A stretch of 64,000 nt of DNA from Bacillota bacterium (lineage in GTDB: Bacteria; Bacillota; Clostridia; Christensenellales; UMGS416): contig JAEWRW010000020.1 in assembly GCA_023398815.1 (NCBI GenBank), positions 66,474-130,473 on the forward strand, written 5' to 3'. Shown here one piece after another: positions 8,867 through 36,340 of the stretch; position 1 is the stretch's first letter; the number at the start of each line of letters is the position of its first letter. Under the pieces are notes generated by a model that saw nothing but the letters and a program-made list of their open reading frames with translations, searched no databases and was not told the DNA's origin. The position numbers were made by a program, and so were the translations under genes.

Positions 8867-8916
8867 AGAGATATTGTGAGAACACAATTTGACCACACTA
8901 TGGGGGCTAAGAATCT

Positions 8917-18318: not shown

Positions 18319-18378
18319 CATTCCCCGGCAAAACTAGCCCTCAAACGCCTTAATTATGCGAAAACATCAATGTTTTGG

Positions 18379-18407
18379 TTGCGCTGGTAACTTTCATCGT
18401 TTATAAT
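18379..18407 (+). promoter_or_regulatory. SigA-type promoter TTGCGC-17-TATAAT, apparent native ppdK promoter now separated from ppdK by the island
   Basis: ggTTGCGCtggtaactttcatcgttTATAATacg. The last T of the -10 is the first base of the attL repeat. The same repeat, then a 43-nt leader and a GAGGAGG RBS, precede ppdK at 33610-33712. Confidence 0.65.
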
Positions 18408-18466
18408 ACGTAGTTGCGTGTAATACTTCTTTTGTGTGCGCTGGAAGGCCCTGGCAGGGGCAGCGC
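18407..18466 (+). repeat. attL: 60-bp direct repeat
   Basis: TACGTAGTTGCGTGTAATACTTCTTTTGTGTGCGCTGGAAGGCCCTGGCAGGGGCAGCGC. It is identical to 33610-33669 except at offsets 48 and 54 (C here, T there). Confidence 0.9.
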
Positions 18467-18538
18467 GTTAAGAATGGCTTGAATCCGTGGTTTCTAAGCG
18501 GGTTCAGGCCATTTTTGTTCTTATTATGGCACATTGTC

Positions 18539-18556
18539 AAATACACACAACTTTTT
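18539..18556. repeat. 18-bp sub-terminal inverted repeat, left copy (candidate integrase arm site)
   Basis: AAATACACACAACTTTTT is the exact reverse complement of 33539-33556. A related GTTGTGTAC lies at 18581-18589. Confidence 0.7.
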
Positions 18557-18634
18557 TATTTATTCAAAGAAAATCCAACAGTTGTGTACACTACAAAAAC
18601 CATTTTACCTTACTAAAAGGGATGGAATACAAAG

Positions 18635-19579
18635 ATGAAAACTATAAGTTCAAAGCCAATAAACCACACGATTACTAGCGCATACGAACTTTTCAAAACC
18701 GAATGCAGGATTAGAAACCTTGCATCTGCAACCATTGAACACTACAACTATTGCGTGTTACGGTTCAGCAAGTACATTGAGTGTGATACAACACCGATTT
18801 CCAGCGTGAACAGCGAAACAATTAGGGGATTTATACAGCACATGGCTAACGCTGGCTTGAAACCCAGTAGCATTAACATCAATCTTACTGGTGTTCGTGC
18901 GTTCCTCTATTGGGCCATGGAGCAGGGATTTGTTGCTGAATTTAAGATAAGGCACATCAAAGCAGATGAAACCGAACAGCCAGTTTATACAGAAGAAGAT
19001 TTATTGAAGCTGACAGAGAAGCCCAAAACAGATAAATTTGATGTTGTTCGTAACTGGTGTATTGTTTGTTTTGCCATTGCAACTGGTGTGAGGGTAAGAA
19101 CGCTTTGCAGTATCAACATTGAGGATATTTTGCTTGATGAAGAAGCTGTAATGATTCGGCAACAAAAGAACCGCAAGATAAAGAAGCTTCCACTTAGTAG
19201 TGGAATGGTTAAGATACTGAAAAACTACATCTGGACATATCTAGCAGATGAAGCAGGGGATTTCCCTTTGTTTCCTTCTAGCAGGGCAACACGCATGAGA
19301 GCGACAACAATGCAAAGCGCAATTCACAGATACAACAATTCCAGAGGTGTTGAAATAACTGCAATGCATGGTTTTCGCAGGGCATATGCAAAAATGTACA
19401 TCAAGAATGGTGGACGTATTGAAATGCTAAAGGAACTTATGTGTCATTCATCCATTAAGCAGACAGAGAAATACTATGATTTGTATACAGATGATTTGCG
19501 GCAAGGATATGAGGAATTGAATCCTCTGCAACAGCTTGTAGGTAAAACATCAAGGACAATCAAAACACGCAATAAATAG
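18635..19579 (+). CDS. int: tyrosine recombinase / phage-type integrase
   Basis: 314 aa. It has an N-terminal SAM-like core-binding domain (TIEHYNYCVLRFSKYI...TIRGFIQHM) and catalytic motifs ATGVRVRTL, HGFRRAYAKMY, MCHSSIKQTEKYY (R..HxxR..H..Y). Confidence 0.9.
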   Translation: MKTISSKPINHTITSAYELFKTECRIRNLASATIEHYNYCVLRFSKYIECDTTPISSVNSETIRGFIQHMANAGLKPSSININLTGVRAFLYWAMEQGFVAEFKIRHIKADETEQPVYTEEDLLKLTEKPKTDKFDVVRNWCIVCFAIATGVRVRTLCSINIEDILLDEEAVMIRQQKNRKIKKLPLSSGMVKILKNYIWTYLADEAGDFPLFPSSRATRMRATTMQSAIHRYNNSRGVEITAMHGFRRAYAKMYIKNGGRIEMLKELMCHSSIKQTEKYYDLYTDDLRQGYEELNPLQQLVGKTSRTIKTRNK

Positions 19580-19702
19580 AGCCTAGAATGCGTTTTACTT
19601 TGAAGTGGGACAACTTCACTACCAAGGCGTAAAAATTGATTCTGACCCCGAAATTCATGCGATTAAGGGCAAAAAGCCCTTACATAAGAAGGAGGAACAC
19701 CA

Positions 19703-19960
19703 ATGCCTAACCAAACCACCATCAACACCCTCACCGACAACCTTATCAACGACACCATGGCCGAACTCACTGGACTGGACAGCCGCACGATTCGCAAGTA
19801 CGACGGGCTTTTCCTGAATGAAGACAACGTGGAAACCGATGCAGAGCAAGAGACAGCCCAATACAGTGTCAATTGTCTTGTGTCCACCATACCTGACAGT
19901 GTGATTGAAACCGTGGGGTATGGGGGTACTGTCCCTGCTTACTGGCATCCTGCACTTTGA
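19703..19960 (+). CDS. hypothetical protein, possible HTH (MAELTGLDSRTIRKY)
   Basis: Strong AGGAGG RBS 7 nt upstream of the ATG. It overlaps a second ORF (19905..20105) in another frame, so a frameshifted single gene cannot be excluded. Confidence 0.4.
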   Translation: MPNQTTINTLTDNLINDTMAELTGLDSRTIRKYDGLFLNEDNVETDAEQETAQYSVNCLVSTIPDSVIETVGYGGTVPAYWHPAL

Positions 19961-20128
19961 TGCTGTTGGCTTGCTGGATGACGAAGTGGAAGCCTACAGC
20001 GTGGTTAAAGCCTATGAGCTGCTAAAGGCTTGCAGAGTGGTTAAGCCAATGTCCAATAAGGAATTTTCAGTTGACTGGGTTAAGTTGTATGGGCTGATTA
20101 CCTGAACTGATGTTGTACCCTCACTGGC

Positions 20129-20719
20129 TTATTGCTGGGGAGGGTTGCTTTGGCTTGAACAATCAAAATGTGATATCCCTCCGTATTCGTTGAGTAGATA
20201 TTTGAGTTGTGTATAATATTCATCCTTAATAACATATTTTTTGATGCCAGCACCATATCCATAGGACATGTATGATTGATGTGCTCTAGTTAAGTCATTA
20301 AATGGCGATGAATGAAGTAATGGGGAATCAAGTAATTTGGCATACTCGTGATAAGAACGCTTCTCAATGTTAAGCGGTGCATTACCGCTTTTAACCATTG
20401 TTATGAGAATATTATACTCATCCCCATCTAGTGTATCGACAAAAGACCTCATCTCTTCAAAGGCGTATCTGTTATGTTCCTTAATCGATTTTGAAGAGGA
20501 TATCTTTGTTGACAAACATGTGGATAGCCATTTTATTAGAATCACAGTAAGAAAAAATGAAACCCAAAGAAACATGCCATAAAGAATAACTCCAAGTTTT
20601 GTTCTTAAAATATAGTCGCTAGGAATAAAGAAATACGCTAAGCATGCAAGAACAAAAGATAATGTTGTTGGAACTAAATACTTTTCAAGAAAGATTTTAA
20701 GAACATCAATAAGCTTCAT
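20129..20719 (-). CDS. membrane protein, possibly superinfection-exclusion B (SieB)-like
   Basis: Start trimmed to ATG (comp. 20717-20719; GGGAG RBS). It has two N-terminal TM helices (TTLSFVLACLAYFFI, LGVILYGMFLWVSFFLTVILI) followed by a soluble domain containing LDGDEYNILITMVKSGNAPL. The SieB resemblance is from memory only. Confidence 0.35.
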   Translation of the reverse strand: MKLIDVLKIFLEKYLVPTTLSFVLACLAYFFIPSDYILRTKLGVILYGMFLWVSFFLTVILIKWLSTCLSTKISSSKSIKEHNRYAFEEMRSFVDTLDGDEYNILITMVKSGNAPLNIEKRSYHEYAKLLDSPLLHSSPFNDLTRAHQSYMSYGYGAGIKKYVIKDEYYTQLKYLLNEYGGISHFDCSSQSNPPQQ

Positions 20720-20814
20720 ACTGTATGCTCCCAATTCATGGTGCTTTGATTATACACTAATCAATGGATGTATCAAAGGGTAGCTTCTTCAAATCAAGAA
20801 TTCCAACTTAATAT

Positions 20815-21208
20815 ATGAAATATATACTACAGTGGGCTTGGCCAATAAAGCTGGAATTAAAAAGCCAGCTATAACAAACCCTATAACACCTAGCCTAAAT
20901 CAATGAATGGTGATGAGAAGGCCACAGGCTAACGCATTCAGAAATGGAAGGATTTCATTGTCTGGTTGGTAAGGGAGCAGGGGCTAGATGGACTGGGAAT
21001 TGACAGATGCAGAATTGAGGTTGCCTATTATTTTCCGACAAGAGCAAGACATGATGCTGATAACTATACAATCAAGTGGATTGGTGACGGTTTAGATATT
21101 TGTGGATTATTGGTAGATGATTCATTTTCAGTTGTAAAGAGGTTATCCATTCTTGGAGAGATTGACAAAGCCAACCCCAGAACAGAGATAAAAATAGAGG
21201 GGTTATAG
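20815..21208 (+). pseudogene. degraded RusA-family Holliday-junction resolvase gene
   Basis: ORF 20966..21208 encodes the RusA C-terminal core (IEVAYYFPTRARHDADNYTIKWIGDGLDICGLLVDDSFSVV...EIKIEGL). Upstream pieces (MKYILQWAWPIKLEL.., ..ITPSLNQ, ..MNGDEKATG*RIQKWKDFIVWLV) lie in shifted frames, with an in-frame TAA at 20930-20932. Confidence 0.55.
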
Positions 21209-21230
21209 TTTGTCTATAACCCCTTCGGTG

Positions 21231-21464
21231 CTAAAATTTGAAGTCCTTTACTTTTTCATACCAGTTGTGGCCTTCAACCGTTGCCATATAATAGGCCTTT
21301 CCATCATAACCCAATTCCATAATAAGTTTGTTGTCTAGCAACAAAACTAAATTGTACTGTATGGTTGCCATATTGATACCCATAATAGTAAGCAATATCT
21401 CCTTCGTTGCATATCCGCTTTCGATAATCCTTTTCAGAGTTTCAACAAAATATGTTGGATTCAT
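21231..21464 (-). CDS. small hypothetical protein, possibly winged-helix DNA-binding
   Basis: 77 aa with a GAGGGGAG RBS. The pattern LKRIIESGYATKEILLTIMGINMATIQYNLVLLLDNKLI resembles a wHTH. Confidence 0.4.
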   Translation of the reverse strand: MNPTYFVETLKRIIESGYATKEILLTIMGINMATIQYNLVLLLDNKLIMELGYDGKAYYMATVEGHNWYEKVKDFKF

Positions 21465-21602
21465 AACATACTCCCCTCAAGTTTTTTCTTAATAGTACAA
21501 TTTTATAGGTTAATCATCAAGTGCCTGTTTTGCATAGTATTCTACGGCTGTCCAATAATGAGTTTCGCAATTCTTATACAAAATAAAATCGGAGGTAGCA
21601 TA

Positions 21603-21896
21603 ATGGAATTTTCCCCGCCACTGGACAAAGGAATTGATAAAGAAGTAATTATATTAAGACAAAACGGAATAGAAACATATGAATCATGTCAGGGTGGCAA
21701 AGGGCATTCTTCGCCTGGCCCAATAGTAAATTTCCACGGCGAAAGTGCAGAGGGTTTTCGAGCATACACAATCGCCGTGGAAAATGGTCTGCGGGTTAGT
21801 GAATTGCGAAGAACATACCATGTGGAAGATGGAGAGTTAGTAGGCCCTACTTGGGAAATGACGTTCACACACTGTTTATTTTCCCGCGTCGTTTAG
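21603..21896 (+). CDS. hypothetical protein
   Basis: Track ORF 21558..21896 trimmed to ATG 21603, which follows GGAGGT. I recognise no motif (MEFSPPLDKGIDKEVIILRQNGIETYESCQGGKGH...). Confidence 0.4.
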   Translation: MEFSPPLDKGIDKEVIILRQNGIETYESCQGGKGHSSPGPIVNFHGESAEGFRAYTIAVENGLRVSELRRTYHVEDGELVGPTWEMTFTHCLFSRVV

Positions 21897-22043
21897 TTTT
21901 GAACAATGATTACATAGAGGTCTACCACCTGTTCCTGAAGTCAAGTACTTCTTTTCAATGTTGTTTCCTTCGGTGCATGCGCTATTGTTGTGATATACCG
22001 TTTCGCCGGGTCTTTTCGAATGAAATGCGGGTACTTTGGGCAT
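21876..22043 (-). CDS. small Cys-containing protein (55 aa)
   Basis: Track ORF trimmed to ATG at comp. 22041-22043, which follows AGGAGG. MPKVPAFHSKRPGETVYHNNSACTEGNNIEKKYLTSGTGGRPLCNHCSKLNDAGK has a Y-H-x3-C...C-x2-C pattern seen in small bacterial proteins of unknown function. Its 3' end overlaps the convergent ORF 21603..21896. Confidence 0.45.
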   Translation of the reverse strand: MPKVPAFHSKRPGETVYHNNSACTEGNNIEKKYLTSGTGGRPLCNHCSKLNDAGK

Positions 22044-22295
22044 GGTTGTATCCTCCTTTCTATTAATTGCCATAATTCTACATCTTATTGATATTAAAAG
22101 CAATATAAAATATATCTACATAAAATGCTATGAATCGACATTTCACCTGTGGGTTTGGCATAAAAAATGAGGGGCGTAAACCCTTCACATTGTGGGTAAA
22201 AGATATTTAATCTATCTGCTCGATTCGGCAATATCCTCCAAAATAGAATATTTCTATTTATGGTATAATTTAGAAAAATATTTGGAGGCATAATT

Positions 22296-22673
22296 ATGGA
22301 TCGTTATGTTCCGCAGCTAAGAAAGGGAATAGATTATACAAATACATCTGAAGAACAAAGAAAAGAAGAAAGGATATATTGGGAAAAGATGCTAAGTTAT
22401 CTTGAAGATATCAAAAATAATACATCCAACTTATCAAATATAGTTAATTTGCTTGTTGAGAATAACGAGAAACAAGACGAAATTATTGATATAATAAAAG
22501 AATTGTTGAGTATTACAGCTTTAAAAGGCAATCCGGAAGAGGCAATGTCCCTTTATCAGAAAGTTATTGATAGAATCAATAAGCTGAACAATGGCGCGGA
22601 CGCATTCATGAAACTAATGAATTTTTGTACGTTTGTCGGAGGAATGCTTCATCAACTTGGAATTCTTCAATAA
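22296..22673 (+). CDS. hypothetical protein (helical, 125 aa)
   Basis: GGAGG RBS. No recognisable motif. It is followed by a 37-aa ORF (22695..22808). Confidence 0.4.
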   Translation: MDRYVPQLRKGIDYTNTSEEQRKEERIYWEKMLSYLEDIKNNTSNLSNIVNLLVENNEKQDEIIDIIKELLSITALKGNPEEAMSLYQKVIDRINKLNNGADAFMKLMNFCTFVGGMLHQLGILQ

Positions 22674-22827
22674 ACAAATGACGGGAGAAGTAAAATGAAA
22701 AAACAAGACTATGGTGCAGTTCAATCCCTTGGAGCGGTTTTCGCTGAGGAAGAAAAGCATGTACCTAGACCGGCGAGCATTCCCCTATACACTACAGTCC
22801 CTTCGTAACATACAATCATATTAAGCA

Positions 22828-22872
22828 GGAAAACCCTTAGCCCCGGCTTAGGGGCCGGGGCAGGGTTTTCCT
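22828..22872. terminator. bidirectional terminator hairpin between convergent island genes
   Basis: GGAAAACCCT..CCCCGGC-TTAG-GGGCCGGGG..AGGGTTTTCC is a long GC-rich stem flanked by A/T. Confidence 0.75.
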
Positions 22873-22953
22873 GCATTATGATTACCTTATTTTGACATGA
22901 TTGAAATACTATAATACATTGTTATTTATATATAATATTTCTAATATGTCAAA

Positions 22954-23940
22954 TTATCGGAAGAAGAAGTGTGATAGATTTGTGCATTGCTCTATATATG
23001 ATTCCTTTGCGCGATACGATGGAATGTCATCCGGCCCAAAGTATCTCTCCAGTAGTTCGATTTGTCTCTTTCTCGCATTTTGAATAAATCGTTCAACAAA
23101 CAAACTTCTCAATTCATCCAGCGTGTCAACAGATTTATCGCATAGAATATCTTGAATGTCTTGTGTTTCCGAGACTAACCATATGTCATATGCAGAGTAT
23201 ATATAATCTATTCCGAATTCCTTATAAAGGAGCGATTGCAATTTTGTTTGGAATTCGTTAGTCTTGTCTCTCCAAAAAACATCATTTTCACATCCAAGTC
23301 CCATTTCATCCAGAACTTCGTGCCTCAGTTCCTTTTCTCTTGCCACCTCCTCGTCAGTTGCTTCCCTCAGTTTTGTCTTGTCAGAATGGCAAAATGCCAT
23401 TTCTTTTACTTTGTAATCAACAAGTCCTTGATTCTTAAGTGAAACTAAAACAGAATTAAGTGCTGATGCCAAACATGTTCTGGTTTGTTGATAAAACTCT
23501 TTAGTTATTCGTCTGTCTAGTTTAACTTGTAATTGTGACTCAAGTTCACTTATCAAATACCCATAATTTCGCGAGTCCATTTTTGTTATTTCTAGTGTTC
23601 TATAAACATGGAATAGTGACTGGTTACTAATAGGCACTGGATTATTCCATAAGTATGATAACAGTAAGGTTTCGAGGGCTTCCCCATATATCCTGTTGTT
23701 CATGTTCTTTTTCTTTCTTCCATCAACCCTTTCTTTGGGCTCACGATATATTTCTTCTATCCTGTAGGTTCTTCCATTTTTAGAGTAACTAAAATACCGT
23801 GCCCATTCTCGTAGTTGATAGACTTTCTTTTCTCCACCGCATATCCCTTCTCCTAAGGCTTTACAAAGTTCTTGATAGTCTTTGAATACTTTGTTTTCAT
23901 ATAAAAGATTTGTTGTAATAATTGATTGTTCTCCTTTCAA
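22954..23940 (-). CDS. hypothetical protein (328 aa)
   Basis: Long AT-rich ORF with coding-like composition. I recognise no motif. The start codon (TTG 23940) is uncertain. Confidence 0.45.
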   Translation of the reverse strand: MKGEQSIITTNLLYENKVFKDYQELCKALGEGICGGEKKVYQLREWARYFSYSKNGRTYRIEEIYREPKERVDGRKKKNMNNRIYGEALETLLLSYLWNNPVPISNQSLFHVYRTLEITKMDSRNYGYLISELESQLQVKLDRRITKEFYQQTRTCLASALNSVLVSLKNQGLVDYKVKEMAFCHSDKTKLREATDEEVAREKELRHEVLDEMGLGCENDVFWRDKTNEFQTKLQSLLYKEFGIDYIYSAYDIWLVSETQDIQDILCDKSVDTLDELRSLFVERFIQNARKRQIELLERYFGPDDIPSYRAKESYIEQCTNLSHFFFR

Positions 23941-23954
23941 TAAAATAAATTAAC

Positions 23955-23972
23955 TGTAGACAAAAGTCTACA
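23955..23972. promoter_or_regulatory. perfect palindrome TGTAGAC-AAAA-GTCTACA, candidate operator
   Basis: 7-bp arms with a 4-bp spacer, 15 bp upstream of the 22954..23940 ORF start. Confidence 0.35.
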
Positions 23973-24343
23973 ACAGAAAGCTAGGTATATCCAAACTTTA
24001 GTTGAGCTATTTGGGGATGACTCCAAGAGCAACAGAGAAAAGTGAATGTGCTTAACTTATGGCTGTATTATACCACAATCGGATCTATTTGTCAACCCCT
24101 ATATATTGAAGAAGACCTATGAATCCCCATTGCAGGATTATATGTAATCCCTCTATAATACTTAACCTTCCCCCAAATTATTCTAAGCTTACTACAGTTT
24201 AAATCTCTAGGGTGTGGTGTGGTTCGGGTAGCTCATAAACGAATTACTAAGGCAACACCATGCAATAATGGAAAATCACCCCCACTAAATTCACTTTTCC
24301 TGTGTTTTTTCTTTTAGGGAATATCTCATTGGGGTATAGTTTG

Positions 24344-24428
24344 TTGAAACATCAATAATTCGTTTCAATAGAGCATATGCAGCTAGTTTGAAATGTTTCA
24401 CAAATATTGTTGATTTATATGAAACATC
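24344..24428 (+). promoter_or_regulatory. res-like cluster of TGAAAC/GTTTCA repeats upstream of the resolvase gene
   Basis: The cluster contains TTGAAAC-N11-GTTTCAA (24344-24368), TGAAA-TG-TTTCA (24389-24400) and TGAAACATC (24420-24428). The last repeats 24345-24353. Confidence 0.45.
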
Positions 24429-24467
24429 CTGCTAACATTGCATTATCAAAATCAGGGGATGCAATGA

Positions 24468-25031
24468 ATGGCAAGAATCGGGTATGTAAGAGTTTCTACT
24501 AAAGAACAGAACACTGCTAGACAGGAAGTGTTGCTATCAGATTTAGGCGTAGATAAAGTTTTTGTTGACAAGGAAAGTGGAAAGGGCACAGACAGACCAG
24601 AGCTCAAGAAGATGCTGGACTACATACGAGAAGGCGACAGCATAATTGTAGAATCAATAAGCCGCTTTGCAAGAAATACACGAGACCTTCTCGACCTAAT
24701 TAGTAAGCTAGAAGGGAAAGGGGTTAAGTTTGTCAGCAAGAAGGAAGCTATTGATACCGATACCCCTACCGGGAAGTTCATGCTCACCGTGTTTGGTGCA
24801 GTAGCACAACTGGAACGTGATTATCTGTTGCAAAGACAGGCAGAAGGAATCGCAATAGCCAAAGAACAGAAGAAGTACAAGGGCCGGAGGAAGATTGAGA
24901 ATCCTAAGTTTGAAAAGGTGTATGGAGAGTGGAAAACAGGACTCATTACTGCGGTTAGGGCTATGGAGCTACTGGACATGAAGCGAAACACTTTTTATAG
25001 AAGGGTTGCTGAGTTTGAGAAGGAGGCGTAA
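24468..25031 (+). CDS. serine recombinase (resolvase/invertase family)
   Basis: MARIGYVRVSTKEQNTARQ...DKESGKGTDRPELKKMLDYIREGDSIIVESISRFARNTRDLL...GV.F.S..E.IDT.TP.GK....VFGA.AQLERD... followed by a C-terminal HTH (RNTFYRRV). The catalytic Ser lies in the YVRVST context. Confidence 0.92.
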   Translation: MARIGYVRVSTKEQNTARQEVLLSDLGVDKVFVDKESGKGTDRPELKKMLDYIREGDSIIVESISRFARNTRDLLDLISKLEGKGVKFVSKKEAIDTDTPTGKFMLTVFGAVAQLERDYLLQRQAEGIAIAKEQKKYKGRRKIENPKFEKVYGEWKTGLITAVRAMELLDMKRNTFYRRVAEFEKEA

Positions 25032-25194
25032 TATAGCTATGCACTTTTTCTGTGTTGTGGGCACCATCATACTCTTTAGGTCATGTATAGATGAGCGGCA
25101 GACACATTACGCTGATTTTAGATAAAAATATCTTGCTCTGATAAGATCACTGGTCTGTCGATAAAGCGCTTTTCAGATCTTCTTTCCTTCCACA

Positions 25195-25223
25195 TTGACA
25201 ATTGTAAGCACAAGTGATAAATT
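25195..25223 (+). promoter_or_regulatory. candidate promoter TTGACA-17-TAAATT of the candidate defence operon
   Basis: cacaTTGACAattgtaagcacaagtgaTAAATTatg lies about 50 nt upstream of the HTH gene start. Confidence 0.55.
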
Positions 25224-25249
25224 ATGAACAATTATGAGTAATTGTGAGC
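25220..25249 (+). repeat. three tandem 10-bp repeats AATTRTGARY overlapping and following the -10 (candidate operator)
   Basis: AATTATGAAC AATTATGAGT AATTGTGAGC, followed by AATGAATTAT. Confidence 0.5.
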
Positions 25250-25273
25250 AATGAATTATAGAAGGTGATGTGC

Positions 25274-25473
25274 ATGAGTAAAGAGTATATTACTCTCGCT
25301 GAATTAGCAAAGATGTTGAAGATAAGCAGAGCAACTATTGATCGCTGGAGAAAAGAAGGTATGCCATCCATAAGATTGGTAACGGAGTTAGGTTCATTGA
25401 AATCGATGTCCACAATTGGATTGCGGAACATAAGTCTGATCAAAAGTCAAAGCAAGAGGCCACCAGAGGGTAA
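25274..25473 (+). pseudogene. excisionase/MerR-type HTH (HTH_17-like) DNA-binding protein with a 1-nt frameshift at an A-run
   Basis: MSKEYITLAELAKMLKISRATIDRWRKEGMPSI is in frame 1. The canonical continuation KIGNGVRFIEIDVHNWIAEHKSDQKSKQEATRG* is in the next frame. One extra A at 25372-25373 (AA to AAA) restores a 66-aa protein ending at 25473. The track ORF 25265..25486 is the unrepaired reading. Confidence 0.65.
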
Positions 25474-25478
25474 TCGAT

Positions 25479-25931
25479 ATGATTAAGCTTTTGCAATTGA
25501 AAATACGCAGATTTTATAGAAGCACCTTCCAACGAAAAGGCTTCTGGTTGTCTTTTTTTCTTTTGGTATTTAGTTTCGTTGTATTGATAATGATTCTGTT
25601 TCCCGTAATTTATGACAGAGTGCCGCTCTATTCATACTTCGTTCGTGAATGGAAACTACCAGTTGCGTATGAACTTGATGGCCAAGTAGAGATAGTAGAT
25701 GCTGCTGGCAATGTTGTTAATACAAATGTTGAAGTTTTTATCGGGGGATATTCCACATCTGTTGATTCCAATGGACAGTTTAAATTAGTATTCTCAGCGC
25801 CATTAACGACTGAGTTATTTATCGTAATTAGGTATACAACTCCTTCAGGGCAAAACATTGTAAAAACTGAGCTATTAGTTATTAAAGAGGGAGTTCACAA
25901 AATTGAACAGGAGTTCAAGTATAATGCCTAG
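25479..25931 (+). CDS. single-pass membrane protein with CarboxypepD_reg-like beta-sandwich domain (operon gene 1)
   Basis: It has a basic N-terminus, the TM segment GFWLSFFLLVFSFVVLIMILFPVIY, then LDGQVEIVDAAGNVVNTNVEVFIGGYSTSVDSNGQFKLVF (pattern G.V.D..G.....V...G....TDSNG.F). The start is 5 nt after the repaired HTH stop. Confidence 0.6.
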   Translation: MIKLLQLKIRRFYRSTFQRKGFWLSFFLLVFSFVVLIMILFPVIYDRVPLYSYFVREWKLPVAYELDGQVEIVDAAGNVVNTNVEVFIGGYSTSVDSNGQFKLVFSAPLTTELFIVIRYTTPSGQNIVKTELLVIKEGVHKIEQEFKYNA

Positions 25932-27243
25932 TACTTATGAACTTGCAGTTATTGGTATGGGCCCTGCTGGAATCGGAGTAGCCGCAGCTCTTCAAAATTC
26001 ACCTATTTTCTTAAATACAATTTGTTTTGAGCGCGGCGAAGAGGTGAACGCTAAGAAGTGCATTGCTATTTATAAGTATCCTTGCTGCAATTCGAATACT
26101 TGTCATATCATTTCGGGTATTGGTGGGGCTTCGAGCTTAAGTAATGGTAAGCTAAGTCTCTTTCCTGCAGGTAGTGGACTTAAACGCTTTTTCGCAACTG
26201 AGCAGGAATTGGAAAGTTTGATGGCAGATGTAATCCAATCGCTTGAAATTGATGCCGGACTCAAGAAAGTGGAGATTGACAAAAAAGTAATATCTGATGC
26301 GAAAAAATTCTATTTAGCCAACGATATCACGTACAAGTATTACGATGTTTACGAGTTCGATGGAGATAAGTATCGCAACTATCTTGCATCGACAATCCAA
26401 TCTTTGACTAGTCATGGACTTCAGCTTCATGCAAAAGCAGACGTTATATCGATAGAACGAGATGATTCGAACTTATGGTATACTATCACCGTTGCTGAAA
26501 ATGGAGTAATAAATTTTTATAAGGCAAAAAGAATAGTATTAGCGGTGGGTTCAAGTCAAATTAATAATTACCTTGTTTCCGCGTTATCGGGCACAAAAGC
26601 AATCAACTATGAAATTGGGTTAAGAGTAGAATTGAAATCTGAGTGCTTCGGTGATCACCTGGACGCTCATGGTGACTTGAAGCTTATTAGCAAATCAGGA
26701 AGGACGTACTGCGTAACAAGGGGTGGAGCAATCGTATCATATAGAACTGATGGATATTCCTTGTTGGAGGGTTATGTTGATAAAAATCAATTAACTGATT
26801 ATTCAAATCTTGCAGTATTGGTTAAGGCAGATGATGAGGAAGAGCTTAACAAATTCTTTGGGAATTATTATGCCTTTTTCGGAGGTGTGCCCGTAAGGCA
26901 AAAGTATATCGATTATCAATTGGGTAACGTAAGCACCGGCTTCGTCCATACAACTTTGGCTAAATCACAAATAGGTGATATCAACAAAATGTTCCCTAAC
27001 TCTATAAATGAAGCGCTACGCGAATTTATAGATCATGTGATTGTCAAAACCATGCACATTGAAAAAGAAGCAATAACTATTGTCGCACCAGAGCTAAAAA
27101 CGGTTGTAAATTTCGAATTAACAGATCATTTCGAGATAACATCGCATTTATATGTCGTAGGAGCGGCCACCGGGAAATTTCGCGGTATTCTACAATCAAT
27201 ATGTTCTGGTGTACAATGTGGCAAATATATTTTAGGGGAGTGA
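25924..27243 (+). CDS. FAD/NAD(P)-binding oxidoreductase, COG2509-like (operon gene 2)
   Basis: I chose ATG 25924, which overlaps the gene 1 stop by 8 nt. It has an N-terminal Rossmann motif ELAVIGMGPAGIGVAAAL, then GIGGASSLSNGKLSL, and a C-terminal LYVVGAATGKFRGILQSICSGVQCGKYIL, as in uncharacterised FAD-dependent dehydrogenases. Confidence 0.65.
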   Translation: MPSTYELAVIGMGPAGIGVAAALQNSPIFLNTICFERGEEVNAKKCIAIYKYPCCNSNTCHIISGIGGASSLSNGKLSLFPAGSGLKRFFATEQELESLMADVIQSLEIDAGLKKVEIDKKVISDAKKFYLANDITYKYYDVYEFDGDKYRNYLASTIQSLTSHGLQLHAKADVISIERDDSNLWYTITVAENGVINFYKAKRIVLAVGSSQINNYLVSALSGTKAINYEIGLRVELKSECFGDHLDAHGDLKLISKSGRTYCVTRGGAIVSYRTDGYSLLEGYVDKNQLTDYSNLAVLVKADDEEELNKFFGNYYAFFGGVPVRQKYIDYQLGNVSTGFVHTTLAKSQIGDINKMFPNSINEALREFIDHVIVKTMHIEKEAITIVAPELKTVVNFELTDHFEITSHLYVVGAATGKFRGILQSICSGVQCGKYILGE

Positions 27244-27247
27244 GCTC

Positions 27248-28888
27248 ATGTATATTTGGGATGCCCTATATGGAAAGATTGAGTTCAATTCATTAGTTTA
27301 TAGATGCATGATGTCCCCTGAAGTTCAACGACTCAGGGAGGTTCGTTTGTGCAATATTAACTCACTGTGCATTACGGGTAGTTCAAACACTAATCGATTT
27401 GAGCATTCAATTGGCACTGCATACCTAGCATCTGTAAACATAGAGTCATCTGTTGAGAACCATCTAAAGCTCGACAAAAAAACTAAAGAGATATTAGTCA
27501 TAGCTGCATTGCTCCATGATGTAGCAAACGGCCCTTATGGGCATTCATATGAATATATCATGGAAAAACAAGGCTTTATTCCTGAAAAGGGTTTAGGTGA
27601 TGTTCTGTCGTTTGAAGGTACGGGCGTTAATAAAGTTGCCTATAAATTTTCCCCAATTTTTTTTGGTAAACTGAAAACGCTAAATAGCATACTTGATTCC
27701 GTACAAAAAGCTGAAGTTACAAGTATTATCTCTGGCGACCATACCTTAAGCAAATTAATTAGTTCGGAAATAGACCTTGACAATATTGATAATGTTTTTA
27801 GAATGGCTTATCATATGGGCTTGAGTTTTACCAAGGAAGCGCCTTTGCGCCTTGCACAAAATATGTATATTGAAGATGGAAATATACGTTTCAAAAGAGA
27901 GGTAGAGCCGTTTTTAAATGAATGGTTTGAGTTAAGAAAAAGGGTTTATAAGTTCTTGCTATTAAATCCTCAAGAATTTGCCGGTAAGTATATGCTAACT
28001 GAGGCAATGGACATTCTATTTGAGTGTGCTTCTGAAAACAAGGCGCGTGACAAAGATAATAAGCCTGTTTCCATTGAGTGGTACTATACTGACTATGAAC
28101 TAATGACCGAATTGAACGGCCTCACTGAAGTATGGCTTCCAAGAAAAACACTTCTATTTGATCGTATTGACCGTAATTTAATCAGCGATATTTTGCGATG
28201 CACTAATGAGATTGCCCAAAGAACAAACCTACAAAACTACATGCAGTCGTTGCTATTGCAAACATCAATAAAGGAGAAGGGGAAAAGTGGCAATTCTAAC
28301 AAATTGCAACTTAACGACAACTTCAGAATATTTATTTCCGCAAATAATGTTATTTCAGTTACAGACCGCAACATGGAATTCGAGATAAATGGTGATAAGC
28401 TATATAAAGTAGTTTATACCAAATACAATCCATCCCAAATTGTATCTCGATTAATGACTGGTGATCTTTATGACTGTCTGTTGATATTGGATACTAATGA
28501 TACAGGAAAGTACCCTCGGTTTCTGGATTATTCTTTGCGTATAAATATTGAAGCCGAACTTGAAGCAAAAATTAGAGCGGAAAAAGAATTTGCTCGTTTG
28601 AGTATTGGTGTACACCCAATTCTTGATAAAAATAAAACAAAGCGGCAATTGTCAATCGCTTTTGATGATACTGACAGGTTGTCAATCATTGGAGATTGCT
28701 CATCATGTAAACTCCTCATAGGTATTTTCATTAAGAATGAGCCCTATGGACTTAGTAGTGGAAAAATTCCCTTGGCAAAGCATCGCGAAAAGCTTGAAAA
28801 AATTGTATTTGACTACTTCGTCTCATTTTTCGAAAACGGCGCGAAGATAGTGCCATTATATGAGGAGGCGAATATTTATGGATATTGA
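27248..28888 (+). CDS. SAMHD1-like HD-domain (d)NTP phosphohydrolase with long uncharacterised C-terminal region (operon gene 3)
   Basis: WDALYGKIEF...SPEVQRLREVRL...NRFEHSIGTAYLA...IAALLHDVANGPYGHSYE...EIDLDNIDNVFRMAYHMGL gives the H..HD..D constellation and overall pattern of the dGTPase/SAMHD1 family. Residues from about 230 to 546 have no motif I recognise. Confidence 0.75.
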   Translation: MYIWDALYGKIEFNSLVYRCMMSPEVQRLREVRLCNINSLCITGSSNTNRFEHSIGTAYLASVNIESSVENHLKLDKKTKEILVIAALLHDVANGPYGHSYEYIMEKQGFIPEKGLGDVLSFEGTGVNKVAYKFSPIFFGKLKTLNSILDSVQKAEVTSIISGDHTLSKLISSEIDLDNIDNVFRMAYHMGLSFTKEAPLRLAQNMYIEDGNIRFKREVEPFLNEWFELRKRVYKFLLLNPQEFAGKYMLTEAMDILFECASENKARDKDNKPVSIEWYYTDYELMTELNGLTEVWLPRKTLLFDRIDRNLISDILRCTNEIAQRTNLQNYMQSLLLQTSIKEKGKSGNSNKLQLNDNFRIFISANNVISVTDRNMEFEINGDKLYKVVYTKYNPSQIVSRLMTGDLYDCLLILDTNDTGKYPRFLDYSLRINIEAELEAKIRAEKEFARLSIGVHPILDKNKTKRQLSIAFDDTDRLSIIGDCSSCKLLIGIFIKNEPYGLSSGKIPLAKHREKLEKIVFDYFVSFFENGAKIVPLYEEANIYGY

Positions 28889-30080
28889 TAACATACGAAA
28901 GAATATTAATAGTATTAATTGGAACTTTGACTTTACTATTACTTATGACTCTGGAATGATTCGTCCATTCAATTGTCGTAAATATTACTCATATCCAGCT
29001 ACCTTCATTCCGGAAATTCCATACACATTGATTGAGATTCTTTCGAAGAAAGGAGATGTGGTTCTTGACCCATTTGGTGGGATAGGAACAACATTTATGC
29101 AAGCCTTATCGTTGGAGAGAACCCCTCTGTCTTTTGATATTAATCCCATCGCTACAAATGTTTGCGAAACCCTGTATCGTTTGTTTGACCCAAATTTTGG
29201 GCACGAGGATGTGAAAAAGCAGCTCTTGGATTATTGTAGAGACTATGATAAAAATTATGATTATAGAAAGAAATTGGCTGGATACAAAATTGAACTAGGT
29301 GGATGGTTTGAAGATAACACATTTAATGAGCTTGCATATCTGTTATATAGATATCAGAACACACAAGTCTATAACCTAAGAATTGTACTTGGGCTTATTT
29401 TGCCAAGTATCTTGACCACGTTATCCAGCCAAAACAAAGGTTGGGCTTATATAGCGGATAATGTTAAACCGAAGTTTGATGAACTCCGACAAAAGAGTGT
29501 TTTAGATCATTACAAATCTACATTAAAAACATTACTAGGAGATGTGGAAAGTCAGTTAGGAAGCTTTCCGAAATCTTATCCTGATTTCTATCAACAATTA
29601 GCAGAGACCCCGAGGGTAATAGCAGATTCTATTGTGAATAGTAACCTTCGGGATAGCTCTGTCGATTTAGTCATTACATCTCCTCCATATCCGAGAATGA
29701 TAGATTATGTCAAATCGCAACGACTATCGTTTTATTTTTTTGACCTTAACTTCCACGAATATGTAGAAAGCGAAACGGGAGCAAGGTATCGTAGAAGTCG
29801 CCAGGATGCGTTGACGGAGTATGAGAAACAGATTTGTTTCGTAAACAAAAAAACCCTTGATTTACTAAAAATTGGTGGCTTTTTTTGTTTGGTGCTTCCG
29901 GATTACAATGTCGATGACAACAGAAAATCAGTGATAGAGAAGATTGTTAAATGGTATTCTGAGAATGGACTTACTGAGGTTGCTAAGATTGGTAGGTATA
30001 TTCCAAGCCATAAAAGAACACTTAGTATTCAGTGGGCAAGCTTGGTAAATGAACACATTTATATTTTCCAGAAAGGGTGA
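28878..30080 (+). CDS. amino (N4-C or N6-A) DNA methyltransferase, motif order I...IV (operon gene 4)
   Basis: I chose ATG 28878 (GAGGAGG RBS), which overlaps the HD gene stop by 11 nt. The AdoMet motif is VVLDPFGGIGTTFMQAL and the catalytic motif is VDLVITSPPYPRMIDY. No restriction endonuclease-like ORF is adjacent. Confidence 0.75.
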   Translation: MDIDNIRKNINSINWNFDFTITYDSGMIRPFNCRKYYSYPATFIPEIPYTLIEILSKKGDVVLDPFGGIGTTFMQALSLERTPLSFDINPIATNVCETLYRLFDPNFGHEDVKKQLLDYCRDYDKNYDYRKKLAGYKIELGGWFEDNTFNELAYLLYRYQNTQVYNLRIVLGLILPSILTTLSSQNKGWAYIADNVKPKFDELRQKSVLDHYKSTLKTLLGDVESQLGSFPKSYPDFYQQLAETPRVIADSIVNSNLRDSSVDLVITSPPYPRMIDYVKSQRLSFYFFDLNFHEYVESETGARYRRSRQDALTEYEKQICFVNKKTLDLLKIGGFFCLVLPDYNVDDNRKSVIEKIVKWYSENGLTEVAKIGRYIPSHKRTLSIQWASLVNEHIYIFQKG

Positions 30081-30085
30081 GCATT

Positions 30086-31273
30086 ATGCTTTATGAAGGA
30101 ATAATAATAACAGGTACTTCGTGTGTTGGTAAGAGCACTATAGCTAAGAAGTTGTGCGAACCTGATGTATATGGAAACTTTAGCTCCTTTGAAGTTGTGC
30201 CCGCAGTAACGACACGACCTCCAAGAAACGATGACTTTAACTATGGGTACATAGATGAAGCTGGATTTAAGAACTTGCTTAAACAGAATAGACTGTTAAC
30301 CAGCACGAAATATCGAGATAGACTATATGGGATCAAACGAGATAGGTATGAAGCTGTTTTGGGTAGAAATAAGTACCCCATATTAATCCTTGCTCCCGAT
30401 TCTTCAATGTCGTTGATGAACGATTTTAATGGTAGATTTATGTGCTTCTTCATTGATGCTGAGGATGAAGATCTTATAGAGCGCTTGCAAATTCGAGACA
30501 ACCGAGAAATATCTGATAATGAGAGGGCAAACTTAAAGAAACAGTTTGCGATAGACAGAAATAATGCGTATAAGGCAAACTATGTTCTTAAGAACAATGA
30601 TATTGATGTTTCGGTTTCTCTTACAAGACTGTTATGGGAACAAAGAAATCATGGGGGAGGCTTGTCATACAATATAATTAAATCAATGATAGAATGTGGA
30701 ATGCTTCTTGAGAATGCGGATACAATAGGAGTCAAAGGCGCGTCGTACGACTTGCTATTAGGCGATGAATACTATTACGCAGGGAAGATAAAGAAGCTTT
30801 CCGATACAGATCCTTTCCTAACAATTGAGCCTTATGATTACGCTATCGTTTCATGTAAAGAACGTGCCTGTATGCCACGCGATGTAATTGCAAGATTTGG
30901 TCTCACGGTGGGGCTATTCTGTCAAGGTATAATTTTATCAAACGGTCCCCAAATTGATCCCGGCTTTCAAGGAACATTGTTTTGTTTGCTTTTTAACACA
31001 TCCAATCGCGCAGTACATTTGAAGAGAGGAAAGCACTATGCATCCATCGAATTCAACAAATTAATAGAACCTGCGGAACCATATGTAGGCCAGTATCAGG
31101 GAACAGAGAAAATTATAGAATATATCCCTGCGAACGCTCTGCAGGGAGCGATTAACGAACTTAAGAAGGATATTGAAACGCTTAAAGATGAAAGCAAACT
31201 CATGCAGAATATTTACCTAGTGGTAGTAGGCTTAATGTTTGCAATAATATCCATTCTGCTGGTTCTTAGGTAG
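30086..31273 (+). CDS. fusion protein: guanylate-kinase-like P-loop domain + dCTP deaminase/dUTPase-fold domain + coiled coil + C-terminal TM helix (operon gene 5)
   Basis: The P-loop is IIITGTSCVGKSTIAKKL, with the GK-like AVTTRPPRNDDFNYGYIDEAGF...YGI. The Dcd-like region is GASYDLLLGDEYY...IEPYDYAIVSCKERACMPRDVIARFGLTVGLFCQGIILSNGPQIDPGFQGTLFCLLFNTSNRAVHLKRGKHYASIEF. The C-terminal TM is IYLVVVGLMFAIISILLVL. GTG 30077 overlaps the MTase stop; ATG 30086 has a GGGTGA RBS. Confidence 0.75.
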   Translation: MLYEGIIITGTSCVGKSTIAKKLCEPDVYGNFSSFEVVPAVTTRPPRNDDFNYGYIDEAGFKNLLKQNRLLTSTKYRDRLYGIKRDRYEAVLGRNKYPILILAPDSSMSLMNDFNGRFMCFFIDAEDEDLIERLQIRDNREISDNERANLKKQFAIDRNNAYKANYVLKNNDIDVSVSLTRLLWEQRNHGGGLSYNIIKSMIECGMLLENADTIGVKGASYDLLLGDEYYYAGKIKKLSDTDPFLTIEPYDYAIVSCKERACMPRDVIARFGLTVGLFCQGIILSNGPQIDPGFQGTLFCLLFNTSNRAVHLKRGKHYASIEFNKLIEPAEPYVGQYQGTEKIIEYIPANALQGAINELKKDIETLKDESKLMQNIYLVVVGLMFAIISILLVLR

Positions 31274-31627
31274 CTGCAATCAAAATCACTTCATAGAGTC
31301 AACAACACCAATCGCGTTGTGGTTATTTGTCATCCCTTGAAAAGCAAGTGCTAATCTCAGATACATTCTTAATTCCGTGTAGGAGGGGGGAGACCTTTTC
31401 CTATAACTAGTTAATATTGATTCTATTCCAGATGAAGGATATGACCAGATAGATATTGATGTAGGCAACTTAAAGACAGGGAAGAACACATTCACCTCGG
31501 ACGTGATGGTTTTGAGAACAGGGGCAGATATTCTGGGAATGCCGCTCTCTGGAGGTTCAGTTTCACCGTGACAAAGACGTAAAAGTGATATCATCTTTCA
31601 TAATATCCCAAGCATGTGAGGAGGAAC

Positions 31628-31813
31628 CTAGCTTTGTGTTGTGTCATCCTGTTTTTCATCAATATGACTTAATGCATATTGAATACACATAACGACCAAT
31701 TTATTCAGCGATATTCCCTTTTCATTGCAGATAGTTTCCATCTGTGAAACTAGTTGCTTTGAAATACGGAATGTTCTATTAACATATTCTTCTTTTTCAA
31801 TTCTGAATGACAT
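31628..31813 (-). CDS. ribbon-helix-helix (CopG/Arc-like) DNA-binding protein
   Basis: Trimmed to ATG (GGGAGGG RBS). MSFRIEKEEYVNRTFRISKQLVSQMETICNEKGISLNKLVVMCIQYAL shows a beta-strand followed by two helices, the pattern of RHH regulators. Confidence 0.55.
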   Translation of the reverse strand: MSFRIEKEEYVNRTFRISKQLVSQMETICNEKGISLNKLVVMCIQYALSHIDEKQDDTTQS

Positions 31814-31972
31814 AATAAACCCTCCCACACAATTTTAGTTGATGATTTCACGCATTTATACACATATAAAACAGCATAAAATACACTTGTTTATTGAGTT
31901 CATCTGTTGTATTATTTTGTTCACTTAATACGGATGTTTTCTACTAAAAACGAATATGGAGGACAAGACAAA

Positions 31973-33034
31973 ATGGAGAAAATACGCTCCTCGACAACCA
32001 TCAGGATGAATTCGAAATCCATATTAGTTCTAACTCTAGTATGCTCTGCCGTAGTTGTAGCGATTGTTGTAAGCCTTGTGCTACTTGTTCCCATGGTGAA
32101 GTATACTAAAGCAATGGCTCTATTTAATAATAAGGACTATGGTAATTCATCAAAATCTTTTTCGGAGATGGGTGACTATAGAGACTCAAAACAGATGGTT
32201 TTGGAATCTGATTACAATTATGCAAATCAATTGGTTGGGGAAAAGGAGTATGAAAGGGCAATCTCCATATTGTCACACATAGAAAATTACAAGGACAGTC
32301 AGGAAATTAAGAGGGAAGCAAACTACCTGTTCGCAAGGTTGAAAATTGATACGAAGGATTATAAGGCTGCAATTAGCATCCTCAAAAATCTTAACCAGTA
32401 CAAAGATAGCAGCGGCTTGTTGACAAGTGCTACTTATCATCAAGCAGTTCAATACTATGAAAGCGGAGATTTCAGCACATCTAAGCAATTATTCCAAAGC
32501 GTCAAAGATTACGAGGATACAGCAGACTACCTTTCTGACATAGAAATAATTGGAGCTATTCAAGGTACATGGGAAAAAAACTATACAGTAAGCAATGCAC
32601 CGCGTGACATCTTGATATTCCACGGCTGGATTGTAACGGATGTGAATTATTCCCTTGGCCTTACAGTTAGGGAATCGAAACTTTCGATTGAAGATGGGCT
32701 TGTTGCGGCTGGAACAAAGGATGAATATATGATGGAAACTTATCAGCAGCAAGGCGATAATAGCTTATGGGAACGGAATCATGTAAATGAGGAGGATAAA
32801 TCACAAGATATATTTATTGAGTACAGGAAAAGGAATAGCTCTACAGTTGTGCCTTCTCCCCCAGCCATCGGTATGACCAGAGATGAAGTTATAAATTCCC
32901 TGTGGGGGAAACCTAACCAAATTAATAAAACAACAACAGCGAATGGAGTGAGTGAACAATGGGTTTATTCTGATGATGTGGGCGGAGGATATGTATATTT
33001 TGAGGATGGTATTGTAGAGTCCATCCAAGAATAG
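31973..33034 (+). CDS. membrane-anchored protein with repeated helical (TPR-like, GDY.DS) motifs
   Basis: Trimmed to ATG 31973 (GGAGGA RBS). The TM is ILVLTLVCSAVVVAIVVSLVLLV. Repeats include F.EMGDYRDSKQ, IENYKDSQE, LNQYKDSSG and VKDYEDTADY. Confidence 0.55.
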   Translation: MEKIRSSTTIRMNSKSILVLTLVCSAVVVAIVVSLVLLVPMVKYTKAMALFNNKDYGNSSKSFSEMGDYRDSKQMVLESDYNYANQLVGEKEYERAISILSHIENYKDSQEIKREANYLFARLKIDTKDYKAAISILKNLNQYKDSSGLLTSATYHQAVQYYESGDFSTSKQLFQSVKDYEDTADYLSDIEIIGAIQGTWEKNYTVSNAPRDILIFHGWIVTDVNYSLGLTVRESKLSIEDGLVAAGTKDEYMMETYQQQGDNSLWERNHVNEEDKSQDIFIEYRKRNSSTVVPSPPAIGMTRDEVINSLWGKPNQINKTTTANGVSEQWVYSDDVGGGYVYFEDGIVESIQE

Positions 33035-33081
33035 TTGCATTTTTACCAGTAGATAAACTATTGATTGGAGTTTGATTTCAT

Positions 33082-33110
33082 ATGAGAGCGCTAATAGGCG
33101 CTCTCATTTC
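33082..33110 (+). terminator. rho-independent terminator after the last island gene
   Basis: ATGAGAGCGC-TAATAG-GCGCTCTCAT followed by TTCC; the T tract is short. Confidence 0.55.
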
Positions 33111-33538
33111 CAAAGACAATAAGCATGGGGAAGGGCACTCCCCCTTCATTTGAACAAGCGACTGTATACTTCTCGTTACACATCAATAAAGCGGTCTATT
33201 TTATTATGTTTTCAGCCCTAAAATCGATTTTTCCGATAGGGTAGTACAATTCCTCCACCTCGTTGAGAAAATCGATTTCAGCCCGTAGAAGCATATAAAG
33301 TTAATCACCTTGATGTGTTTTGGGGTTGGTAATCAGGCGAAGGTAATTTCCGTACTCCACAAACCTGAGGGGTATGGATGCAAAGAGGCAAGCAGAGTGA
33401 ATTTCTCAGCTTTGGATATGTATGTAGTGCGAGAATCAAAAGAGCAAATAAATTGTAGAAATAGCATATTGTGCTTACAGTTAAAATCCTGTACAATTAG
33501 TTTTCGGAAAATGGCGTTGATTGCGTTCTTTGAGAATC

Positions 33539-33556
33539 AAAAAGTTGTGTGTATTT
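33539..33556. repeat. 18-bp sub-terminal inverted repeat, right copy (candidate integrase arm site)
   Basis: AAAAAGTTGTGTGTATTT is followed by TTCAAAAACACAC, which can pair with GTGTGT. Confidence 0.7.
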
Positions 33557-33609
33557 TTCAAAAACACACGGCTTTAAGCCAGAAATTACGCGATTTTCTA
33601 CGTATCCGC

Positions 33610-33669
33610 TACGTAGTTGCGTGTAATACTTCTTTTGTGTGCGCTGGAAGGCCCTGGTAGGGGTAGCGC
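33610..33669 (+). repeat. attR: 60-bp direct repeat
   Basis: TACGTAGTTGCGTGTAATACTTCTTTTGTGTGCGCTGGAAGGCCCTGGTAGGGGTAGCGC; 58/60 identical to 18407-18466. Confidence 0.9.
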
Positions 33670-33712
33670 ACGGCTTTGTTTACCCAACATATAACATAGA
33701 GGAGGAAACTGA

Positions 33713-36340
<2,628 letters not shown>

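Follow-up and report, generated by a model that had tools for sequence, protein, structure and literature searches.

A 15.2-kb genomic island lies between ppdK and its predicted promoter in an uncultured member of the Clostridia

In an uncultured Bacillota bacterium (Clostridia; UMGS416), a genomic island has come to lie between ppdK, the gene for pyruvate, phosphate dikinase, and the conserved promoter predicted for it (P1). The locus is part of a 64,000-nt stretch of contig JAEWRW010000020.1 (assembly GCA_023398815.1), the whole of which is called the window below. The best explanation, to which we attach a probability of roughly 80%, is that a 15.2-kb island integrated at the ppdK promoter and leader by way of a 60-bp core, as a result of which P1 would now lead into the integrase gene (int) and ppdK would depend on other signals. 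The identification as an integrated island of the tyrosine-recombinase type, with left and right attachment sites (attL and attR) and an adjoining integrase, is confirmed. The features at the centre of this reading are the following (positions in the window).

17023-18318, plus strand: host gene for an M14 peptidase (Pfam Peptidase_M14), found directly to the left of ppdK where the locus is uninterrupted (L084/L085, see below)
18379-18407, plus strand: P1, predicted conserved sigma-70-type ppdK promoter TTGCGC-17-TATAAT, with TTGCGC at 18379-18384 and a 17-nt spacer
18407-18466, plus strand: attL copy of the core, 60 nt, with C at 0-based offsets 48 and 54
18467-33609: island-specific DNA, 15,143 bp (15,203 bp with one core copy), low in guanine plus cytosine (GC) and missing in L084/L085
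18635-19579, plus strand: int, a Xer-like two-domain tyrosine integrase of 314 amino acids (Pfam Phage_integrase, 2.4e-25, and a SAM-like N-terminal domain)
33610-33669, plus strand: attR copy of the core, 60 nt, with T at 0-based offsets 48 and 54
33713-36340, plus strand: ppdK, intact, 875 amino acids, three Pfam domains

The two core copies agree at 58 of 60 positions (the two mismatches being at offsets 48 and 54) and form the sole long repeat within 17-35 kb, while no significant similarity, i.e. no extended homology beyond the 60 nt, was found past either core edge. The attL copy starts on the last T of TATAAT (18402-18407), and 43 nt separate the end of the attR copy from the ATG of ppdK (33713). 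The position of the repeat, its overlap with the -10 element and the 43-nt gap had all been given in an original prediction made on this DNA, and all of its coordinates are correct. The GC content is 0.35-0.43 inside the island versus 0.57-0.66 in the host, with the step, from 0.60-0.65 down to 0.35-0.40, falling exactly between the core copies. The attL junction is 100% identical in contigs assembled separately from other samples, the neighbourhood of cargo genes and ppdK is seen in three contigs, and two Logan contigs from a further run (L003 and L095) stop within the core, just where a k = 31 graph should branch if the island is integrated (these breaks are uninformative on circular forms). 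Since the junctions recur in independent assemblies and the Logan break pattern fits, an assembly chimera is very unlikely.

The uninterrupted locus is found in a sister species. Relatives were reached through protein clusters of PpdK; a PpdK scan of GTDB species genomes was of no help for the empty site (attB), the best among the matches listed being only 74% identical. The closest relative, with 98% amino acid identity in PpdK, is represented by L084 (ENA) and L085 (GCA_023409755.1), which are the same scaffold in two database records and thus one independent genome. In this scaffold, which is island-free here, ppdK follows the peptidase gene after a spacer of 192 nt, where the window with the island removed (18319-18466 joined to 33670-33712) predicts a spacer of 191 nt. 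The reconstructed junction is colinear with that of L084 and 91% identical to it, and the L084 locus aligns with the island-deleted window in one 10.46-kb alignment of 89% identity that runs across the junction (the two ppdK genes differ by 108 synonymous and 18 non-synonymous codons). The homologue of 18379-18466 is joined directly to sequence from 33670 onwards, as had been expected of island-free relatives, and the order proposed for the uninterrupted locus (promoter, ~100-nt leader, ppdK) is the one that is found. A search for an island-free genome of the same species gave none. By this comparison the island would be an insertion, or would have been precisely lost in the relative, exactly at the repeat.

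The surroundings of ppdK are less stable on one side than on the other. The order ppdK-dnaG-rpoD (window 36576 onwards) is kept in L084, L086, L088, L100 and L101, while the gene 5' of ppdK differs among the relatives (M14 peptidase, MpsC-like, recO or unknown), and the 5' side of ppdK is therefore a recurrent rearrangement point. Upstream of the peptidase gene, there is no synteny between the window and L084.

The identification of P1 comes from a phylogenetic footprint that takes in the window and three other lineages, L084, L086 and L101, of which the latter two have PpdK proteins that are 89-90% identical and different upstream genes. All four have kept the block TTGGTTGC-N-GTTTATAATAC and the TGCGTG..ATACT behind it, while the adjacent spacer has diverged past alignment. 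When the DNA 5' of ppdK is scored with a crude -35/-10 matrix, P1 comes out as the top promoter in each of them, and its -10 element ends 94-103 nt 5' of the ppdK ATG. The score of 11.5 in the window is equalled in only 6 of 242 host windows of 200 nt. The footprint bears out TTGCGC-17-TATAAT, put forward in the original prediction, as a real promoter sequence, and we accept it as the likely conserved promoter of ppdK. Its predicted start lies at ~18412-18414, which would give a native leader of ~98 nt with the first ~54 nt inside the core. Because the left edge of the core is the last base of the -10 element, P1 now lies 15.2 kb from ppdK and upstream of int, with the int ATG 228 nt downstream of the -10. 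The claim that P1 faces attL and the integrase gene is supported as a matter of geometry. Positions 18000-19000, which span the stretch from P1 to int, gave no prediction of a terminator-like site.

The present arrangement may have come about and may work as follows. The island would have recombined site-specifically across a 60-bp segment common to element and host, starting at the -10/+1 boundary. Transcripts from P1, starting at ~18412-18414, would cross the attL core, and should run on into int because the leader hairpin (see below) has lost its U-rich tail at attL. Expression of ppdK would now come from the element TGTAATACT in the attR core, from promoters in the right arm of the island (33469-33497 and 33530-33557) and/or from read-through out of the island. 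As the right-arm promoters would face int in an excised circle, integration may lead int and ppdK to trade the signals that lie upstream of them.

The hairpin in question lies at the right edge of the core.

33638-33681, plus strand: leader hairpin GUGCGCUG...UAGCGCAC followed by GGCUUUGUUU, a U-rich tail present at attR/attB only and absent at attL

A hairpin in the repeat had been pointed out in the original prediction, and it does exist (GC-rich, with a predicted -18.8 kcal/mol), but it is not exceptional: against shuffled sequence it has no extra stability (z = -0.3), and it is conserved in the closest relative only. The U-rich tail is not part of the core but belongs to the host DNA beyond it, and at attL its place is taken by GUUAAGAAUGG. 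With the right edge of the core falling essentially at the 3' end of the stem, the tail stays with ppdK. If hairpin and tail together attenuate transcription, that brake would be gone in the direction of int. A riboswitch or known leader RNA was rejected, since no Rfam family matched the leader even at E <= 1 and the leader folds no better than shuffles.

Some further pairings in the leader were observed. In L086 and L101 a conserved module, GCGUGCGAUA, makes up the 5' arm of a hairpin that has UUUAUU/UUUGUU behind it. Within window positions 33619-33671, UGUGCGC can pair either upstream (a weak hairpin of -6 kcal/mol) or downstream (the strong hairpin with the U-tract), and the pyrimidine run CUUCUUUU can pair with the ribosome-binding site AGAGGAGG in the minimum-energy fold. 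Such alternative pairings may reflect attenuation in the ppdK leader, with no fold beating the shuffled controls.

As for the signals that are left to ppdK, both the core and the right arm of the island (a non-coding stretch of 500 nt) have to be considered.

18419-18427, plus strand: attL copy of TGTAATACT, an extended -10-like or operator element (core positions 13-21)
33622-33630, plus strand: attR copy of TGTAATACT, kept directly upstream of ppdK, a possible residual promoter (P2)
33082-33107, plus strand: hairpin with a 10-bp stem after the last island gene, weak T-tract
33469-33497, plus strand: candidate outward promoter TTGTGC-17-TACAAT (crude matrix 10.2 versus 11.5 for P1)
33530-33557, plus strand: candidate outward promoter TTGAGA-16-TATTTT (crude matrix 10.5), overlapping the right arm of the terminal inverted repeat

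The statement that ppdK has been separated from its promoter holds for P1, which has been displaced; it does not hold for every signal, as the conserved TGnRATAYT stays at attR and the island candidates score 10.2 and 10.5. TGnRATAYT occurs upstream of ppdK in all six relatives, and the window has it nowhere but in the two copies of the core. The hypothesis that TGCGTGNRATACT is an operator was dropped, the window holding no further copies. In L088 and L100 the promoter with the highest score, TTGAAC-17/18-(TG)TAATAT(T), has the core element as its -10. Likewise in these two, 220-290 nt upstream of ppdK, TTGCAT-17-CAATAT is followed by TTGAAC-17-TAATAT, with the modules ~20 nt apart and a leader of ~220 nt, a natural rearrangement that could serve to dissect the two promoter modules. 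The last terminator of the island given in the original prediction is present as a hairpin (33082-33107), but with only 2-3 T behind it, for which reason the terminator scan did not call it. Since ppdK is intact and the strain was abundant enough to yield a 381-kb contig, some expression of the gene is likely.

The recombinase itself appears to be complete. The integrase gene begins 168 nt inward of attL, and its product aligns over its full length to XerA/XerD structures, with the catalytic R, K, HxxR, H and Y all in place. Its scores lie far under the NCBIfam equivalog cut-offs (138.8 against 220 for XerA, 116.7 against 335 for XerC and 113.8 against 330 for XerD), from which it follows that the protein is Xer-like in fold without being a chromosomal Xer orthologue. 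The sequences on which it could act include a terminal inverted repeat, listed here together with the nearest tRNA gene.

18534-18560: left arm of the 27-nt terminal inverted repeat, holding AGTTGTGTGTAT on the minus strand, a candidate arm-type integrase site
33535-33561: right arm of the 27-nt terminal inverted repeat, holding AGTTGTGTGTAT on the plus strand
18412-18423, plus strand: core motif AGTTGYGTGTAW, which matches the arm motif with 2 mismatches, a possible core-type integrase site
16699-16782, minus strand: tRNA-Leu(GAG), the nearest tRNA, 1.6 kb left of attL

The two arms of the repeat are 89% complementary. Their central motif, AGTTGTGTGTAT, has a counterpart in the core, AGTTGCGTGTAA, which differs at two positions, and this sharing of a motif between arm and core is the pattern to be expected if one integrase had both arm-type and core-type sites here. 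At the core there was no match to a tRNA, a tmRNA or an Rfam family, and tRNA-Leu(GAG) is not the attachment site.

Regarding the crossover, it had been suggested from the two mismatches that strand exchange occurred left of offset 48. This does not follow, as a difference between attP (the site of the element) and attB outlasts recombination whichever side of the crossover it is on; the logic of the mismatches is symmetric, and only the host allele can decide the side. The L084 empty site, the sole attB available, has T at offset 48 (as in attR), whereas at offset 54 it has C/CC, which is closer to attL. A search of the reconstructed attP and attB for Xer-type palindromes of the form 11-N(5-8)-11 yielded nothing above chance, and the perfect palindrome CTACGTA-TCCGC-TACGTAG at the attR edge was rejected as the overlap region, attB being different there. 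Both core copies carry the lineage-specific bases of the host (two substitutions and one indel relative to L084 5895-5955). The close match of attP to the host could possibly stem from long cycling in one species, from capture of host DNA by aberrant excision or from gene conversion between attL and attR.

The island has been seen in one species only, and each copy is integrated at the ppdK site and 100% identical. Among 5.8 billion clustered proteins the integrase has 100%-identical copies and just one homologue, at 31% identity (the latter is encoded on a 15.6-kb Logan contig, L098, beside a helicase/methylase pair and RecT, and comes with no attachment-site information). Neither the JGI metagenomes nor IMG/VR gave a match to the core and promoter patterns, and neither the integrase against IMG/VR nor an island megablast against phage and plasmid records gave one; no attP, second copy or empty site of the same species came out of these scans. 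With every copy integrated at one site, the island may be fixed rather than mobile today.

Several observations weigh against the explanation given at the outset. The -35 element of P1, TTGCGC, matches TTGACA at only three of six positions, which is why P1 is missing from the consensus promoter scan. In the island, 9 of 75 windows of 200 nt score >= 10.2, so that the right-arm promoters are no better than expected of AT-rich DNA and count as candidates, not as evidence. No excisionase was identified with confidence among the island genes (the sole HTH_17 gene sits in the cargo cassette), and the copies found include no circular or empty form of this species. A further oddity is that the core of an element with 37% GC fits the fast-evolving spacer of this host better (58/60) than the sister species does. 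Finally, the splitting of ppdK from P1 is a well-verified event of an ordinary kind, but what is said about expression is deduced from sequence alone.

An alternative is that the insertion was nearly neutral for transcription of ppdK, TGTAATACT in the core being the functional ppdK promoter or one of two in tandem. As both attachment sites carry TGTAATACT, ppdK would then have kept its own promoter and its native leader. We consider this a serious possibility, though one with less than an even chance. It would account for the presence of TGnRATAYT upstream of ppdK in 6/6 relatives, for its use as the -10 of the best promoter in L088/L100 and for an intact ppdK in a strain that gives a 381-kb contig and occurs in several samples; on the other hand, the element lacks a usable -35 in the window, L084, L086 and L101 and scores 7.2 against 11.5 for P1, its upstream context at attR is now island DNA (GTATCC), and it could equally be an operator or initial transcribed sequence, being the 5' arm of the leader hairpin in L086/L101. 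It is rather doubtful that the island is an immobile, fixed remnant, i.e. a degraded prophage or defence island kept for its cargo, with integrase and attachment sites as relics and a promoter context without function. Phage genes do occur only as fragments (an 80-amino-acid RusA and PHROGs of unknown function), structural, replication and transfer genes were not found and all occurrences are at one site in one species, but against this stand a full-length integrase with complete catalytic residues, attachment repeats identical at 58 of 60 positions and terminal inverted repeats that are 89% complementary.

A more far-reaching proposal is that of a reversible switch by reciprocal exchange of promoters, in which P1 drives int and the right arm drives ppdK until excision gives ppdK its native control back and rejoins int to the right-arm promoters; how often excision occurs would then be coupled to the glycolytic state of the host. 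The geometry would allow it: the 228 nt from P1 to int hold no predicted terminator, the 500-nt right arm has two plus-strand candidates that would face int in a circle, the U-tract of the leader is left out of attL, and precedents are available in ICEclc Pcirc, HK022-torS and active lysogeny. Given that the copies found hold no evidence of excision, that no excisionase was identified, that promoters like the right-arm candidates are to be expected by chance in AT-rich DNA and that the island is found only integrated and invariant, such a switch seems improbable. Least credible of all, to the point of being nearly negligible, is that the assembly is chimeric or that something other than an integrase duplicated 60 bp of target site. 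The window is a metagenome contig, and the core of the element does fit the host unusually well; both junctions, however, were assembled independently from several samples by different assemblers, the 60-nt repeat is shorter than the k of 141 (as read from the ENA contig name k141_45181), the two mismatches suit attP x attB better than a fresh duplication, and a transposase is absent.

There is a documented precedent for each step of the proposed mechanism. A close parallel to integration at the ppdK promoter and leader is phage HK022 (Carey et al. 2019, PMC6814406), which integrates upstream of torS in Escherichia coli, where it displaces or destroys the promoters of that gene and provides a promoter of its own. 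In both cases an element with a tyrosine integrase occupies the regulatory region 5' of a host gene, and a promoter of the element near the junction can (here: could) drive that gene. They differ in that the HK022-torS transcripts were mapped experimentally, whereas those of ppdK are predicted from sequence; in that the 3' end of the HK022 int gene faces the host gene, whereas here int lies at the opposite end, behind the displaced host promoter; and in the present identity segment of 60 bp and island of 15 kb without phage structural genes. In ICEclc (Sentchilo et al. 2003, reviewed in PMC5812530), an outward promoter (Pcirc) at the end opposite int drives intB13 in the excised circle only, and as Pcirc joins the integrase gene only in the circle, expression of the integrase is tied to whether the element is integrated. 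The right arm of the present island resembles this in having outward-facing promoters opposite int, here as candidates in the sequence. ICEclc is different in being conjugative and in its target, a tRNA-Gly gene that it enters at the 3' end through 18 bp of identity, while in the present case the integrated state would also set a host promoter before int.

Active lysogeny, of which SpyCIM1 in mutL of Streptococcus pyogenes is one case, is comparable in that a host gene, or what is needed to express it, is broken up by a site-specific element and would be made whole again if that element were precisely excised. Other cases are Listeria phi10403S in comK, Sa3int in hlb of Staphylococcus aureus and SPbeta in spsM of Bacillus subtilis (PMC7397523, PMC6597384, PMC5499854). 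Those elements cut a coding sequence or operon and their reversible excision was shown, whereas the island leaves ppdK with a whole coding sequence and the greater part of its leader. The ppdK gene has been reported as an attachment locus only at its 3' end and in Bacteroidota, where it is used by PvCTn-like conjugative transposons (PMC11005914). What they share with the island is the locus, a tyrosine recombinase, imperfect direct repeats and read-through (here as a prediction) across the attachment sites; they differ in phylum, in being conjugative and in using the 3' coding end with a 20-bp motif and a regenerated stop codon, and the sites are unrelated. Islands that target tRNA or tmRNA genes with extended attP/attB identity were reportedly treated by Williams in 2002. 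The present island is like them in its long block of identity on one side of the crossover, beyond what recombination needs, and in the integrase gene adjoining the attachment site, and unlike them in that its target is no RNA gene.

Glycolysis of the PPDK type is common in Clostridia. If the effects on expression are true, the locus would be a clean example from nature of how a mobile element can rewire a gene of central glycolysis, with the recombinase of the element placed under a housekeeping promoter; to our knowledge, nothing comparable has been described in this uncultured gut lineage. If the exchange of promoters were to act as a switch as well, the integrase level, and hence excision, would report the central-carbon state of the host, and a core glycolytic gene would be under reversible control by a mobile element. 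Apart from this, the site offers a precise attB/attP pair and a compact integrase (314 amino acids) with next to no database relatives, which makes it a potential recombination tool.

The remainder of the island was characterised by Pfam and PHROGs scans of its open reading frames. These revealed no capsid, tail, terminase or lysis genes, and no relaxase, coupling protein, type IV secretion or replication genes were among the Pfam, NCBIfam and PHROGs matches; with structural, relaxase and secretion genes not found, the island is neither a prophage nor a conjugative element. In an open reading frame of 80 amino acids (20966-21208) only the C-terminal half of the RusA Holliday-junction resolvase is matched, and this truncated gene suggests that the left part of the island may be a decayed prophage remnant. 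Other small open reading frames belong to PHROG families of unknown function or encode helix-turn-helix proteins. The larger genes are as follows.

24468-25031, plus strand: small serine recombinase of the resolvase/invertase type (Pfam Resolvase, 5e-42)
25265-31273, plus strand: six-gene cargo cassette, from HTH_17 to a kinase/deaminase-like fusion
31907-33034, plus strand: tetratricopeptide-repeat membrane protein, the last plus-strand island gene

A 43-nt imperfect inverted repeat (23797-23839/25343-25385; 72% complementary, with a core of ~15 nt) brackets the serine recombinase gene and a 530-nt upstream spacer; it could mark an invertible segment, yet is compatible with chance.

The first three genes of the cassette encode an HTH_17 regulator, a membrane protein of 150 amino acids and an FAD/NAD-binding-like protein of 446 amino acids (without a sequence match in the PDB). 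They are followed by a protein of 546 amino acids with a SAMHD1-like HD dNTPase N-terminus, an N6/N4 DNA methylase and, as the sixth gene product, a fusion of guanylate-kinase-like and trimeric dCTP-deaminase-like parts with a C-terminal membrane helix. The same gene order, with 46-77% amino acid identity, recurs in other gut contigs (L102-L106, ~4197-10185), next to a large serine recombinase, a PemK toxin and a NACHT NTPase, and the family of the fusion protein has more than 650 cluster representatives. No PADLOC 2.0 model other than the generic MTase_II matched the cassette, and no paper on it was found in the literature searched. The fusion (kinase-like plus trimeric dCTP-deaminase-like) is unlike the published defensive dCTP deaminase, which joins a kinase to a zinc deaminase. 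The cassette is a candidate for an undescribed defence system that would combine methylation with control of the nucleotide pool. It recurs in defence-island contexts and is probably a more valuable lead than the insertion itself. Elsewhere in the window, a class A RNase P RNA is located at 45448-45798.

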